From assembly GCF_055900595.2 (NCBI RefSeq), contig NZ_CM148325.1: DNA of 64,000 nt; one strand, given 5' to 3'. Of this stretch, positions 2,707-56,934 are shown piece by piece; positions within the stretch are counted from its first letter, which is position 1; each line of letters starts with the position of its first letter. Both the position numbers and the translations under genes were made by a program. The notes under the pieces were generated by a model that was not told where the DNA came from, did no database searches, and worked only from the letters and a program-made list of their open reading frames with translations.

Positions 2707-3297
2707 TTATTGCTGAAAAATTATACCAATATTGCTCTCGCCCGCCTCACGCAGGTCTGCCCTAAGGCCTTTTATCAGCTCGATATCGCGTTCTTCGCAC
2801 TCAGCTAAAAGTCGGAATATTTCCCACTGAATGTCCCACTCTTGCTCTACAGCTGGGTTTTCTTTGAGCTCTTCATCGCTCATTTCACGGCCAGCCTGAG
2901 TCATTTCCAGCATCGCCACGGTCGTGATGGAGGTCTTACTCACTTCTACCGCGTGTTCGAGCGTTTCGCCACTTAAACGCGAATGGACCAGTTCACTTAA
3001 CGCCACGCAAGCATCGATTGCCGGATAAACGCCGTACAGATCGAAATCGTCGGCTGAAGGAATCGCTTCTTCAAATTTCTCCAGTTGGCTGTCGAAATTT
3101 ACTTTTGCGTCTTTGACGGTCAGCGTTTCCCAGATGAGATCGAGAATACGGCGGTAAATTTGCCCATCACCAAAACCAGTTTGCTGACAGAACATGGCGT
3201 AATTAGGGTACATGCGTTCGCATAAGCAGGCCATAAAAGTGACGTGCTGCCAGCTTTCCAGGCGCTCCAGACGCAGATGAATTGGGTTTTGTAACAT
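2707..3297 (-). CDS. yjaG: DUF416 protein YjaG
   Basis: 196-aa ORF; last gene of the nudC-hemE-nfi-yjaG cluster. Confidence 0.85.
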   Translation of the reverse strand: MLQNPIHLRLERLESWQHVTFMACLCERMYPNYAMFCQQTGFGDGQIYRRILDLIWETLTVKDAKVNFDSQLEKFEEAIPSADDFDLYGVYPAIDACVALSELVHSRLSGETLEHAVEVSKTSITTVAMLEMTQAGREMSDEELKENPAVEQEWDIQWEIFRLLAECEERDIELIKGLRADLREAGESNIGIIFQQ

Positions 3298-43235: not shown

Positions 43236-43347
43236 GAAACGGAGCGGCACCTCTTTTAACCCTTGAAGTCACTGCCCGTTTCGAGAGTTTCTCAACTCGA
43301 ATAACTAAAGCCAACGTGAACTTTTGCGGATCTCCAGGATCCGCTTT
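43236..43347 (+). ncRNA. oxyS: OxyS small regulatory RNA
   Basis: GAAACGGAGCGGCACCTCTTTTAACCCTTGAAGTCACTGCCCGTTTCGAGAGTTTCTCAACTCGAATAACTAAAGCCAACGTGAACTTTTGCGGATCTCCAGGATCCGCTTTTTTTT, divergent from oxyR and ending in a terminator hairpin plus U-run. Confidence 0.93.
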
Positions 43348-45956: not shown

Positions 45957-46346
45957 TATTGCAATCTCCTGTGTTGTAAATAGACGCTTCAAACTTAATT
46001 TTACGCCTACTACCATACAAGAGAGAAAGAGCGATTATTCAACCGTGATCACATTAAAAATAAAAATTTCCACCGAGGAACAAAAATATCCTCAAATCTC
46101 ACCTACACTATTAACTACCATCGTTAAAACAACGTGTTAAATAATCACATAACAAATTCCTTTAAGGAAGGGAGTTATAACAACAACAAAAGATAATCAT
46201 ATTTTACTTAATTCAATACGTATCGATAGGTTTATTTAAAAAGGATTTTTCGGAATGAGAGATGAAAAGAAGATACACAAGCAGGAAGAAATACGATTAA
46301 TATTAGTTGCGGTAAGGGTAGCCGTTCCTCCCTTCCGCAACCCATT

Positions 46347-46443
46347 AACCGTTGAAGTCACAGACTATTTCAGGCATTTCTCAACTCAAAATAACGACAG
46401 CCAACGTGAACTTTATGGCTCTCCAGGATCTGCTTTGTTTTCC
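46347..46443 (+). repeat. Diverged copy of the oxyS 3' portion (oxyS-like remnant), direct orientation
   Basis: ACCGTTGAAGTCAC...TTTCTCAACTC...AGCCAACGTGAACTTT...CTCCAGGATCTGCTTTGTTTT aligns with oxyS 43258-43347 at roughly 80% identity by eye; terminator stem not conserved. Confidence 0.7.
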
Positions 46444-46444
46444 A

Positions 46445-52428: not shown

Positions 52429-53433
52429 TTACAAGCCTAGCTTCACTAAACGTCGTGTATTTTCAAGATCGAGCTTTTCTGGATTATCACTATAAATAGT
52501 GTTGTTATTAACCTTGATCTCGCCCATATCACCGATTTTTACACCGTCTTTAATAGGTTCACCGTTCATCATTGCCGTCGCAACCTGGACAAAAACCTTA
52601 CCCGCAATCATAGGGTTTGAAATATATCCCCCATCAATGGCACCTTTTTCGAGTAGCTTAATTCCCTGACCTGGAGTGAAGGTTCCAAAAACGCAAATTG
52701 CATCATTTTTCTTCCGCTTATCAATAGCACGCCCCGCACCAATTGGTCCTTGTGAACCAAATGACATAATGCCTTTAAGATCTTTATATTTAGACATTAA
52801 ATCGTTCGTCGTGCGCATTGAATCATCCACCGACTCAGCAACACCAAAACGATCTTCAACCAACGTCATATTTGGATAATGTTCTTTTTGATAGGCAATC
52901 GCGGCATTGGCCCAGTCATTTACCAAAGGCACAGTCAGACTGCCGACAAACATGGCGTATTTACCTTCTTCGCCCATACACTTCGCCATATCTTTCATAT
53001 GATTGGCACCCATTGTCTGGGTATTTAACAACTCAAAATCCCAATCTGCATTTTTTTGATCTGGTGATTCGTGGGTAATAACTTTAATACCGGCTTCTTG
53101 TGCACGCTTAAGTACAGGTTCAAGAACCTTTGCATCGTTAGGAACAACACCAATAACATCCACTTTTCGTGCAATTAAATCTTCAATCGCCCGAACCTGT
53201 TCAGCTGGATCTGCCGTTGTAGGGCCGACCTGCCATGCATCAACCCCCAATAGTTTTCCTTCATTTTTAATGCCTTGTTCCATCACATTAAACCAGGGAA
53301 TTCCACCGACTTTTACTACTACCCCCATCGTAAAAGGTTTATTCGCTTTTTGTGATGTTACAGTCTGATCAGCCCATGCAGCAGTGGAAGATAATACGGT
53401 AGCAATAAGGCAGGGTAAGATTAATTTTTTCAT
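52429..53433 (-). CDS. Periplasmic sugar-binding protein (type I PBP, RbsB-like)
   Basis: 334-aa ORF with signal peptide MKKLILPCLIATVLSSTAAWA; first gene of the ABC operon. Confidence 0.85.
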   Translation of the reverse strand: MKKLILPCLIATVLSSTAAWADQTVTSQKANKPFTMGVVVKVGGIPWFNVMEQGIKNEGKLLGVDAWQVGPTTADPAEQVRAIEDLIARKVDVIGVVPNDAKVLEPVLKRAQEAGIKVITHESPDQKNADWDFELLNTQTMGANHMKDMAKCMGEEGKYAMFVGSLTVPLVNDWANAAIAYQKEHYPNMTLVEDRFGVAESVDDSMRTTNDLMSKYKDLKGIMSFGSQGPIGAGRAIDKRKKNDAICVFGTFTPGQGIKLLEKGAIDGGYISNPMIAGKVFVQVATAMMNGEPIKDGVKIGDMGEIKVNNNTIYSDNPEKLDLENTRRLVKLGL

Positions 53434-53461
53434 CGTAATTTCCTTAAGAAATAGTTCAGGT

Positions 53462-53493
53462 GTCAGGAAAACTCGATATAATATCGACCTGAC
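53462..53493. promoter_or_regulatory. Nested inverted repeats in the binding-protein promoter region, candidate operator for the adjacent DeoR regulator
   Basis: GTCAGG-AAAAC-TCGATATAATATCGA-C-CTGAC, 36 nt upstream of the binding-protein start. Confidence 0.35.
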
Positions 53494-53555
53494 TATTTAT
53501 ATAATTTATAATCCCTTAGGCATTGATTAATAATTTAGACAATAAATAACGCCTA

Positions 53556-54365
53556 TTATTTATCAACCTCCACAATGTTTAATTGTGGAAATTGTGTTCG
53601 ATACCGAGTATCTGTACAAACATTAGTCACCAGAATATCGATTTCATCCAGCGTGCATATTTTACTAAATGCATACTGTTCAAACTTAGTGGAGTCGACC
53701 AGCAATATTTTTTGTCCTGACACCTGAAGCATCACCTGTTTAAGTCTGGCATTAATTTCACTGCCATCGCGGACACCATTCCCCAGATTCAACCCCTGGC
53801 ATGAAAAGAAAAAACTGTTGATTTGAAAATTTCGGATCGCACTCTCTGCAACCGGGCCATGAAAATCATCATGTCGCTCAGAATACTCACCACCGATACC
53901 AATAATTCGAACTCGATCACGGCAAGCTAACGCCTGAATTATCCGTAATGAATTTGTAACTACGGTAACATCTATATCGGGAATTTGACGAGCTAAAAAC
54001 CAACAAGTACTACTGTTATCCATTAAAATACAATCACCAGGGTGAATAAATTGCAATGCGGCCTTCGCAATTCTGGCTTTTATATCAGGATTTTCTTCAG
54101 TCCGTTTACGGAATGATTCCGCACGATCGATACTATTATCTTGCCACGCATTATCGGCGAGCATAACCGGAGCGCTATCAGATGAATCCAGAGCGACCGC
54201 GCCACCAAAGCTACGGATTAACTTTTTGTTGCGCTCCAGTACCGTTAAATCCCGACGAATTGTCTCAGGAGACGCTTTAAATAATCGTGATAATTCAGTT
54301 ACCCGCACAGCACCTTGTTTTTGTACATGTGCGCATATCATTTTATGGCGCTCTGCCTGCAACAT
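53556..54365 (-). CDS. DeoR-family transcriptional regulator
   Basis: 269-aa ORF with N-terminal HTH (VRVTELSRLFKASPETIRRDLTVLE) and C-terminal DeoR sugar-binding domain. Confidence 0.85.
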   Translation of the reverse strand: MLQAERHKMICAHVQKQGAVRVTELSRLFKASPETIRRDLTVLERNKKLIRSFGGAVALDSSDSAPVMLADNAWQDNSIDRAESFRKRTEENPDIKARIAKAALQFIHPGDCILMDNSSTCWFLARQIPDIDVTVVTNSLRIIQALACRDRVRIIGIGGEYSERHDDFHGPVAESAIRNFQINSFFFSCQGLNLGNGVRDGSEINARLKQVMLQVSGQKILLVDSTKFEQYAFSKICTLDEIDILVTNVCTDTRYRTQFPQLNIVEVDK

Positions 54366-54744
54366 AGTATCGGTCCGTTATTATCAAATTAGCATGCTTA
54401 TATAATTAACTGTTCCCTCATAAAATAAAGTGATAGGAATCAAGATTCATTTTATAATTATAATCGCAAACAGGAATGGTGATCTTTATCACAAATTAAA
54501 TTGAGAACACTCTACTATTTGACATTACTTTGAGATATCGGTCACTAAATAAGTCTTATTCTGCCATCTAACGAAAAATTTAAATACAAAAACAAAAATA
54601 ATCGGGCATAGCAATCGCTTCCATTCATGACCGAATACGCCCGAATAAAACCGTTTATACCCACTTATCCTCTTTCGTTGCCTTCTTACATGCCTTGAAT
54701 ATTTTACATTTCTTATATTCAGCGTAATTTAGGAAACATAATTT

Positions 54745-54816
54745 ATGAGCAAAAAAAGCCCAAACTCAAAAGTTAAAGTTTATTTATATAATACATACAG
54801 ATTATCGTGGAGTTAA
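54745..54816 (+). CDS. Candidate 23-codon upstream ORF ([23 protein letters not shown])
   Basis: AGGAAA 8 nt before the ATG; TAA stop ends 2 nt before the 4-epimerase ATG; no homology claimed. Confidence 0.25.
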
Positions 54817-54818
54817 AA

Positions 54819-55511
54819 ATGGATATGCTAAAGGAAAAAGTTCTTGCTGCGAATTTATCATTACCCCTTCATCAGTTAGTGACGTTTACCTGGGGAAATG
54901 TTAGTGGTGTTGATCGCGAAAAAGGTGTCATGGTTATTAAACCTTCTGGGGTCGAATACAGCCAAATGGGCATTGCAGATATGGTGGTAGTGGATTTACA
55001 AAGTGGTGAAGTTATTGATGGACACAGGAAACCCTCTTCAGACACCGATACTCATCTGGCGCTATACCGTGCTTTCCCGGATATTGGTGGTATCGTTCAT
55101 ACCCATTCCCGACACGCCACAATATGGGCTCAGGCCGGAAAAGATCTCACGGCCTTTGGGACAACCCACGCTGATTATTTCTACGGCACTATCCCCTGTA
55201 CACGCCCCATGAAGGATGACGAAATTAATGGACAATATGAATATGAAACGGGGCGAGTGATTATTGAAACGTTCAGACAACGAGAAATATCTCCCGCTGA
55301 CATTCCGGCTGTTTTAGTAAACAGTCATGGCCCCTTTGCCTGGGGAACTGATCCCGCGAACGCCGTGCATAACGCCGTTGTACTTGAAGAAATTGCCTAT
55401 ATGAATCTCTTTACACAACAACTACAGCCCCATCTTACGGCTATTCAACAGCCTCTACTGGATAAGCATTTTTTACGCAAGCATGGTGCCAATGCTTATT
55501 ACGGGCAGTAA
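54819..55511 (+). CDS. Class II aldolase-family L-ribulose-5-phosphate 4-epimerase (AraD/SgbE/UlaF-like)
   Basis: 230 aa from [34 protein letters not shown]...; GGAG RBS 6 nt upstream; HTHS and HADYFYG motifs; ORF track uses a GTG at 54807. Confidence 0.85.
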
Positions 55512-55560
55512 CCCTCTTAGCATGGCCTGGCGTTTTGCCAAGCCATAAATCGCCTAAGAC

Positions 55561-56934
55561 TTACTCCAACCGCGCCTGCGCAAAAGCAATCGCCTGCGCC
55601 ACCTGCTGCGGTGAGACGCCGCCTTTTGCCGCACGCTTGTCGAGGCACGATTGCAGCGACAGAATCGGATAGACATCTTCGCCAATCACCTGACTGAATT
55701 TCTGCAACTCACTGAGCGGCAGATCTTCCAGCGGTTTGCCCTGACGAATGGCTTCCACCACCGCTTCACCAACAATATGGTGCGCCTCGCGGAACGGCAC
55801 ACCTTTCGCCACCAGGTAATCCGCCAGTTCAGTGGCGTTCGCATACCCCTGCTGCGCCGCTTCCTGGCAACGTGGGCGTTTCACCTGAATGCCGTCCAGC
55901 ACCAGCGCCGCCATATGCAGGCAGTCCAGCCAGGTATCGAGCGCGTCGAACAGACCTTCTTTGTCTTCCTGCATATCTTTGTTATAAGCCAGCGGCAAAC
56001 CTTTCAGCGTCATCATCATGCCAGTCAACGCGCCCTGAACACGACCGCATTTACCGCGAATCAGCTCCAGCGCATCCGGGTTTTTCTTCTGCGGCATTAA
56101 TGATGAACCGGAAGTCACGCGATCAGAAAGCTCCACAAAACCCGCTTCGCCGGTGTTAAAGAAAATCAGATCTTCGGCAAAACGCGACAAATGCACCATA
56201 CCGATAGCGGCGGCAGAAAGCAGTTCCAGCACGTGGTCGCGGTCAGAAACGCTGTCGAGACTGTTACGGGTCGCCGAAGCAAAGCCCAGCCAGCCTGCTA
56301 ACTGTTCACGGTCGATTTCATAGGCCGTTCCCGCTAGTGCGCCACAGCCTAACGGGCTGACATCCAGACGCTTAAGCGCATCCTGCAAACGGCTTTCATC
56401 ACGCGCCAGCATCTCAACATAGGCCAGGCACCAGTGCGCGAACGTCACCGGTTGGGCGCGTTGCAGGTGAGTGTAACCTGGCATTACCGCGTCCTGATTG
56501 TTTTGTGCGGTTTCCACCAGCGCCGATTGCAGCTGTCGGTTAGCCGTCAGCAACTCGCTAACGGTATCCTTGCACCACAGTTTCAGATCGGTCGCCACCT
56601 GATCATTACGGCTACGCCCGGTGTGCAGTTTTTTGCCTAACTGGCCCACTTTGTCGATCAGTTTGCCTTCCACCCAGCTATGGATATCTTCGGCGTCGCT
56701 TTCAAGAATTTGTTGTGGCCTGGCGCGAACATCTTCCAGCAGCACATTGAGCGCCTCTTCCAGTTGCACCTGTTCTTCTGCGGTTAACACGCCTACCGTT
56801 ACCAGCGCTTTGGACCAGGCCACAGAGCCAACAATATCCTGCTCCGCCAGACGGTAATCAAAGCGCAGTGAGTCGTTGAATTGTTTAAACCGTTGATCTG
56901 CTGCCTGGGTAAAACGCCCGCCCCAAAGTGCCAT
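55561..56934 (-). CDS. argH: Argininosuccinate lyase
   Basis: 457-aa [47 protein letters not shown]... Confidence 0.96.

Follow-up and report, generated by a model that had tools for sequence, protein, structure and literature searches.

Positions 54366–54818 of a 64,000-nucleotide (nt) stretch of Escherichia coli chromosome (contig NZ_CM148325.1 of assembly GCF_055900595.2; the whole stretch is referred to here as the window) separate a gene for a DeoR/GlpR-family regulator from a divergently oriented gene for L-ribulose-5-phosphate 4-epimerase. As judged from sequence comparison, this intergenic stretch is most probably the back-to-back divergent promoter region of an accessory sugar-catabolism island, in which three sites resembling those of CRP and an array of operator units lie between a regulator-side promoter, P(−), and an epimerase-side promoter, P(+), and in which a 23-codon open reading frame (ORF) in front of the epimerase gene would be a product of chance. 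The initial annotation had correctly described the gap as some 450 bp of AT-rich sequence, had suggested that it could hold operators of the DeoR-family protein, both promoters or a small RNA, and had drawn attention to the short ORF as a candidate for leader-peptide control or translational coupling. Comparison across genera brought out candidate operators and both promoters. The interest of the region lies in this rigid, well-resolved architecture and not in the highlighted upstream ORF (uORF), and it offers a clear example of regulatory DNA in which spacing is more conserved than sequence. The result is a testable map for an uncharacterised sugar island, with TATGMCCGAW as candidate operator motif and with candidate positions for three CRP sites and two promoters, that would guide footprinting, the design of reporter constructs, and the search for the inducer and the substrate.

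Conserved architecture of the control region

Orthologous loci were compared from 19 genomes of seven other genera (Atlantibacter, Citrobacter, Yersinia, Erwinia, Affinibrenneria, Providencia, and Pantoea), in which the regulator is 63–86% and the epimerase 71–83% identical to the E. coli protein and the divergent gene order is unchanged. The orthologous intergenic regions measure 423–631 bp and are AT-rich in all 19 cases. Together with two E. coli alleles they were aligned with MAFFT, giving 21 loci from eight genera, and the alignment displays short conserved blocks set in sequence that is not conserved. All eight genera share a rigid core of about 330 bp, within which most distances between blocks are invariant or nearly so (Table 1). 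Length varies freely only at the two ends, next to the two genes, which is the pattern that would be expected if two 5′ leaders flanked a protein-binding scaffold.

On the regulator side, the core begins with a conserved block resembling a −10 element (54401–54407), within which the hexamer of P(−) is placed. The three CRP-like sites that follow match TGTGA-N6-TCACA, and three or more such matches were found in 1% of shuffled sequences. Relative to the predicted start of P(−) they are centred at −41.5, −90.5, and −143.5, a geometry that is identical in the 21 loci. A site at −41.5 accompanied by further CRP sites upstream is the textbook arrangement of a class II promoter. The −10 hexamer was assigned to the minus strand on two grounds, its exact class II spacing from the CRP-like sites and the restriction of indels to the side of the DeoR-family gene. 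P(−), with the geometry of a CRP-dependent promoter at which CRP would bind, is predicted to drive the regulator gene and then, through short or overlapping junctions, the binding-protein, ABC transporter, 3-epimerase, and kinase genes. A plus-strand promoter that would place the third CRP-like site at −41.5 or −71.5, with its −10 element near 54568–54573 or 54597–54602, was considered and rejected, being unconserved and not −10-like in Atlantibacter or Citrobacter amalonaticus.

On the epimerase side, the −10 element of P(+) reads TAnnnT in every one of the 21 loci. Situated some 88 nt ahead of the epimerase ATG, this predicted promoter ranks second among the conserved promoter-like positions of the alignment, after its own mirror on the minus strand; its −35 element is poor outside the clade of E. 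coli, Citrobacter, and Atlantibacter. In E. coli it would drive the 4-epimerase gene with a leader of about 82 nt. Yersinia massiliensis and Affinibrenneria carry some 140–190 bp of additional sequence in the predicted epimerase leader (243–268 nt from the −10 element to the ATG).

A separate consensus scan of the E. coli region returned two promoter-like matches, which is below the shuffle mean of 3.1, and neither is conserved in the orthologues. One, on the plus strand, reads GTGATA-17-TATAAT and is overlapped by a second TATAAT (perfect hexamers at 54453–54458 and 54459–54464); the other, on the minus strand, reads TTAACT-17-TATTAT (54816–54788) and lies inside the 23-codon ORF. These E. 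coli-specific matches may be spurious promoters, such as acquired AT-rich DNA commonly contains.

The operator units, whose consensus TATGMCCGAW was derived from 64 copies, form an inverted array in which one or two reverse units face three to five forward units, depending on the locus. The only tandem pair of units of this type in the window is that of the control region, and no cluster of the motif was found in the spacer between the regulator and binding-protein genes (53434–53555) or in that between the kinase and ManD genes (46017–46444). The array is probably the operator of the adjacent DeoR-family regulator. The regulator would bind to R1, F1–F3, and the weaker copies, between the CRP sites and P(+), and expression would in this way respond to a sugar phosphate. 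The 10-bp half-site of GlpR, approximately WATGTTCGWT, seems to resemble the consensus.

A weak operator unit at the start of P(−), where a CATG is conserved, was considered as a means of closing a repression loop and was rejected on its mean position weight matrix (PWM) score of −5.4. In Providencia, a reverse-strand tandem pair of operator-like units lies within the DeoR-family gene itself (positions 3216–3235 of loci L012–L020, about +216 from the ATG) in eight of nine loci; in L012 only one of the two units scores comparably. The pair is absent at the equivalent place in E. coli, and it could be a distal operator for looping in that genus, or it may have come about through conservation of the coding sequence.

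The two E. coli alleles (54366–54818 of the window and 14067–14519 of L002) differ at 25 of the 453 spacer positions (5.5%), and their regulator and epimerase proteins are 99.3% and 97.8% identical, respectively. The 84 predicted motif positions are free of all 25 differences (P ~0.006), the first 92 bp next to the regulator gene, which comprise the core of P(−) and the first CRP-like site, are identical, and six differences fall on the Shine-Dalgarno (SD) motif, start, and first eight codons of the uORF.

Table 1. Features of the control region and its flanking genes, with the distances between conserved elements across the aligned loci; P(−), CRP1–CRP3, R and F units, and P(+) are predicted elements.
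Feature	Position or distance	Strand	Remarks
DeoR/GlpR-family regulator gene	53556–54365	−	First gene of the operon for binding protein, ABC transporter, 3-epimerase, and kinase; RefSeq agrees; synteny kept
Intergenic control region, DeoR-family gene (−) to 4-epimerase gene (+)	54366–54818		453 bp, 30% GC
Predicted P(−) −10 hexamer AATTAT	54402–54407	−	Conserved columns A54402, T54403, T54406; predicted start ~54395 (A of conserved CA)
CRP-like site 1 (CRP1), AGTGA-N6-TCAAG	54426–54447, centre 54436.5		PWM 9.0; GTGA..TCA conserved in all loci
CRP-like site 2 (CRP2), GGTGA-N6-TCACA	54475–54496, centre 54485.5		PWM 15.3; 49 bp from site 1
CRP-like site 3 (CRP3), TGAGA-N6-TCACT	54528–54549, centre 54538.5		PWM 7.6 (8–15 in most orthologues); 53 bp from site 2
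Reverse operator units R2 and R1	54591–54610	−	R2 54591–54600 (degenerate in E. coli); R1 54601–54610 (reverse complement TATGCCCGAT), mean PWM 11.8 over 21 loci
Forward tandem operator units F1–F4, 10-bp period	54626–54665	+	F1 CATGACCGAA, F2 TACGCCCGAA, F3 TAAAACCGTT, F4 TATACCCACT (weak); F1–F3 at 54626–54655
Predicted P(+)	54703–54730	+	−35 TTTACA 54703–54708, 16-bp spacer, −10 TAATTT 54725–54730; predicted start ~54737
23-codon ORF	54745–54816	+	In the window allele; within the predicted variable 5′ leader of the epimerase mRNA
SD motif GGAG of the epimerase gene	54809–54812	+	6 nt before ATG 54819
L-Ribulose-5-phosphate 4-epimerase gene (AraD/SgbE/UlaF type)	54819–55511	+	NCBIfam NF009002, 433.7 bits, above the cut-off of 386; RefSeq agrees
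DeoR-family ATG to −10(−) box	34–90 bp		Varies freely
−10(−) box to CRP1	24 bp		21 of 21 loci
CRP1 to CRP2	49 bp		21 of 21 loci
CRP2 to CRP3	52–54 bp		All loci
CRP3 to R1	71–72 bp		All loci
R1 to F2	27, 37, or 47 bp
F3 to P(+) −35	41–43 bp, or 52 bp in E. coli
P(+) −35 to −10	22 bp		21 of 21 loci
P(+) TAnnnT box to epimerase ATG	81–268 bp		Varies freely

The 23-codon reading frame

The short ORF is present in the window as the initial annotation had reported, with its ATG at 54745, an AGGAAA (54731–54736) 8 nt upstream of it, and a TAA (54814–54816) separated by 2 nt from the epimerase ATG at 54819, the latter being also the start given by RefSeq/PGAP. The level expected by chance was estimated from 3000 dinucleotide-preserving shuffles of the region. 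Of these, 8.1% contained an ATG-initiated ORF of 23 codons or more that ended close to the epimerase ATG, 2.9% one whose stop lay within −4 to +5 nt, and 0.7% one that had an SD-like motif as well; the combination is mildly unusual, but the feature had been chosen with hindsight.

Within E. coli, the allele of the window, with its ATG, is carried by nine of the 146 genomes that possess the island. In 136 of the 146, the 111-nt uORF stretch is at least 99% identical to the allele read in strain CFSAN061763, in which the ATG is ACG and the AGGAAA is AGGCAA; the N3 genome, which has a 1-nt deletion relative to that allele, also has ACG, and the start is ACG in 137 of the 146 in total. The uORF of the major allele has no alternative in-frame ATG, GTG, or TTG, and all four substitutions inside the ORF change either the start codon or an amino acid (K to N, P to Q, and S to P). 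No homologous uORF was found in the 19 orthologous loci of the seven other genera. Some of these have short ORFs that end near the epimerase ATG, but with unrelated peptides that are not shared even by close relatives. An excess of such non-homologous uORFs was considered (5 of 19 loci with at least 15 codons, against a shuffle expectation of 13.6%) and set aside, as it is not significant and close relatives disagree.

The epimerase gene is provided with a ribosome-binding motif of its own, GGAG, GAGG, or GGGG being found 5–8 nt before its ATG in all 21 loci. The scan for promoter and terminator consensus sequences found no terminator-like site in the control region, and the epimerase leader showed no structure beyond that of shuffled controls (z = −0.39). 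Moreover, the predicted start of P(+) lies downstream of AGGAAA, so that this motif would fall between the −10 element and +1, and on the predicted transcript the AUG of the uORF would stand only about 8 nt from the 5′ end.

Given the lack of conservation of the uORF, the separate SD motif of the epimerase gene, and the failure to find a terminator or a leader structure, the proposal of a leader peptide or of coupling is not supported. On this comparative evidence, the 23-codon ORF is due to chance and does not encode a leader peptide; it occurs in a minority allele of E. coli, in the poorly conserved leader, and translation of the epimerase would begin from the gene's own SD motif. The initial annotation had named the lack of a conserved frame in homologous islands, through frame-disrupting indels, as evidence that would speak against its proposal; the frame is indeed not conserved, and it is lost through its start codon rather than through indels. 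That the uORF is nevertheless translated and controls the epimerase, as a leader peptide or by termination and reinitiation at TAA-AA-ATG, is extremely unlikely. The geometry of the window allele and its low frequency among shuffles speak for it, as does the fact that any transcripts that began upstream of 54731, as they might at the TATAAT boxes specific to E. coli, would carry the SD motif of the uORF. These are outweighed by the loss of both start codon and SD motif in 137 of the 146 genomes, by substitutions that are all non-synonymous, by the want of an orthologous uORF, and by the invariant SD motif of the epimerase gene, to which may be added a predicted P(+) start that leaves AGGAAA off the mRNA. 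In comparison with known leader peptides and coupled uORFs, such as the attenuators of amino-acid operons, the window allele alone shares a short ORF with an SD motif ending beside a downstream start; unlike them, the ORF is unconserved and has neither a run of regulatory codons nor a terminator/antiterminator, and the downstream gene has its own conserved SD motif. The uORF can thus be dropped, and no new leader-peptide or coupling mechanism is indicated.

A second 23-codon ORF on the plus strand (54627–54698), beginning MTEYARIKPF, seems to recur in many orthologues as “MTEY/F..R..”. These mini-ORFs are an artefact, because the operator unit reads ATGACCGAATA; they range from 9 to 47 codons in length, their remaining peptide is unrelated, and they have no SD motif.

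Modes of regulation and alternative readings of the core

The regulator has full-length matches to the NCBIfam models of FucR, SrlR, AgaR, GlpR, and UlaR (E values from 1e-47 to 1e-32), all below the equivalog cut-offs, and RefSeq names it as a member of the DeoR/GlpR family. The best models are those of FucR, SrlR, and AgaR, with FucR (161 bits against a cut-off of 259) marginally ahead of the other two; the UlaR model gives 112 bits against a cut-off of 244.

Several observations weigh against a divergent promoter region in which the regulator acts from the array. Measured from P(+), the array lies at about −72 to −146, and from P(−) at about −196 to −270; it overlaps neither predicted core promoter, a placement that is atypical for a simple DeoR-family repressor. 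No conserved proximal operator was found that might close a loop, for outside the R and F units no aligned position, P(+) included, averages more than −1.3. The −10 columns of P(−) can also be read as TATAAT on the plus strand, which is a better match, and in no locus examined does the minus-strand hexamer have a T at its first position. The plus-strand TATAAT hexamers at 54453–54464 would, if firing, give a long transcript that includes the SD motif of the uORF. The CRP and sigma-70 matrices are approximations, the test on allele differences is not fully independent because both alleles are in the alignment that defined the motifs, and the changes of spacer length by about 10 bp at a time may have arisen as repeat units were gained or lost, and not through selection for helical phase.

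The position of the array leads to the possibility, which we consider rather unlikely, that the DeoR-family protein is an upstream activator in the manner of FucR, which from about −70 to −110, or about −72 to −146 in the E. coli allele of the window, would recruit RNA polymerase to a weak P(+) and would join the three CRP sites in a single complex shared by both promoters, in the way of malEp/malKp. Besides the absence of overlap with either core promoter, the poor −35 element of P(+) outside its clade, a distance from array to P(+) that shifts by about one helical turn (41–43 vs. 52 bp), and the rank of the L-fucose operon activator FucR as best NCBIfam match are in keeping with activation. 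However, most characterised DeoR/GlpR-family proteins are repressors that are released by sugar phosphates, UlaR (PMC5934670) and GlpR (PMC2753651, PMC7567609) among them, the FucR match, itself below its cut-off, is only marginally above those of the repressors SrlR and AgaR, and P(+) of E. coli has a good −35 element (TTTACA). A related and still more doubtful suggestion is that three CRP dimers and an oligomer of the DeoR/GlpR-family protein, the latter on the inverted 10-bp array, make the core into one phase-locked nucleoprotein scaffold, in which the regulator would act upstream of both promoters, as activator or as an anti-activator working through CRP, and not by occlusion. It would draw on the invariant spacing over eight genera, the location of the array outside both predicted promoters, and the roughly 10-bp steps of the spacers and, if true, it would amount to a mal-like design built with a DeoR-family protein.

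Readings that dispense with specific protein-binding DNA fare much worse. A core of about 330 bp with almost no indels over eight genera would also fit a structured RNA or a coding region. Nevertheless, it is exceedingly improbable that the core encodes a small RNA, a cis-regulatory RNA such as a riboswitch-like leader, or a small protein. There was no Rfam 15 match at E ≤ 1 on either strand of 53400–55700, which, with the lack of a terminator-like site, leaves the small RNA envisaged by the initial annotation without backing. The conserved blocks match TGTGA-N6-TCACA and the 10-bp repeat and are unconserved between. A hidden small protein gene was likewise considered and rejected: column identity shows no 3-nt periodicity (0.63/0.61/0.62) and the loci share no long open frame, and thus the core is not a hidden gene; the “MTEY” mini-ORFs stem from the operator and lack an SD motif.

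Equally, the spacer might be mere AT-rich, horizontally acquired DNA that H-NS keeps silent, devoid of any specific architecture and with the promoters near their respective genes, a reading that would suit its GC content of 30% against about 50% in the flanking core genes, the restriction of the island to a small minority of genomes, and the several chance TATAAT-like boxes. This is very unlikely in view of the block conservation and invariant spacing across eight genera, which have persisted despite some 20–35% divergence of the flanking proteins, and of the substitutions between the two E. coli alleles, which avoid motif positions.

The divergent promoter region with CRP-like sites and an operator array may be compared with known systems, of which the closest appear to be the GlpR/CRP-controlled glp operons and the UlaR-controlled ula operons and, in layout, malEp-malKp. 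GlpR, of the DeoR/GlpR family, uses four to eight repeated operator sites per operon in an AND logic with CRP (PMC7567609, PMC2753651), and the divergent glpTQ and glpACB operons have operators that interact at a distance, as indicated by the title of Larson et al. (1992) cited in the same sources. The present region, with predicted sites, is like glpTQ-glpACB and glpFK in combining a DeoR/GlpR-family regulator, repeated operator units, and CRP; it is unlike them in that mostly direct repeats face one or two inverted units in place of palindromic 20-bp operators, the array stands off the predicted core promoters, and the regulator scores below the cut-offs of the GlpR model.

Control of the divergent operons ulaG and ulaABCDEF lies with the DeoR-family repressor UlaR, with a sugar phosphate as inducer (PMC5934670). 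The final steps there, from L-xylulose-5-phosphate through L-ribulose-5-phosphate to D-xylulose-5-phosphate by a 3-epimerase and a 4-epimerase (PMC5934670), correspond to enzymes of the island. By contrast, uptake in the island would rely on an ABC transporter and an FGGY kinase rather than a phosphotransferase system, there is no lactonase or decarboxylase, and the regulator, with its low score against the UlaR model, is the first gene of one of the divergent units. At malEp-malKp, one nucleoprotein complex is described as serving both divergent promoters (Raibaud et al., 1989, as cited in PMC3161199). As there, several CRP sites and repeated regulator sites would lie between back-to-back promoters that are separated by a few hundred bp, although MalT is an activator of a different family, a complex in the present region is hypothetical, and here the three CRP-like sites are all on the side of P(−) and the regulator array on that of P(+).

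The island and its relatives

The control region belongs to an accessory island that is inserted in the E. coli chromosome between oxyR/OxyS and argH (55561–56934). A full-length OxyS small RNA (43236–43345, plus strand, 139.5 bits), the only match at the Rfam gathering threshold in 40000–64000, stands directly ahead of the island, which places the insertion site between oxyS and argH. The island was found in 146 of 5426 complete E. coli genomes (~2.7%), always as a single copy and always on the chromosome. Its minus-strand genes encode a major facilitator superfamily (MFS) transporter, ManD, an FGGY kinase, an L-ribulose-5-phosphate 3-epimerase, two ABC permeases, an ATPase, a periplasmic binding protein, and the DeoR/GlpR-family regulator; on the plus strand it has the AraD-type L-ribulose-5-phosphate 4-epimerase gene. 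The set of ABC transporter, FGGY kinase, 3-epimerase, and 4-epimerase probably serves an L-xylulose-type route to D-xylulose-5-phosphate. Nothing on this island or its regulator, transcript and binding data for the locus included, was found in the literature searched.

The spacer between the kinase and ManD genes (46017–46444) is a second long AT-rich stretch, of 428 bp and ~32–33% GC, and includes a TGTGATCACGG stretch. It probably holds a separate promoter for the ManD-MFS pair, and the island may consist of two modules.

The spacer between the regulator and binding-protein genes (53434–53555) contains, in the minus-strand transcript, a hairpin of the form GUCAGG-UCGAUAU..AUAUCGA-..CCUGAC (53462–53493), which is kept in Citrobacter and Atlantibacter with compensatory changes such as CCAAU/AUUGG. 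It has no long run of T and neither an operator nor a CRP motif, and it may be an mRNA stabiliser, a processing element, or a partial terminator by which the proportion of regulator to transporter is set.

The orthologous locus adjoins argH in Citrobacter and Atlantibacter and does not do so in Yersinia, Erwinia, Pantoea, or Providencia. In Yersinia, a second DeoR-family paralogue (32% identity) is found beyond the epimerase gene.

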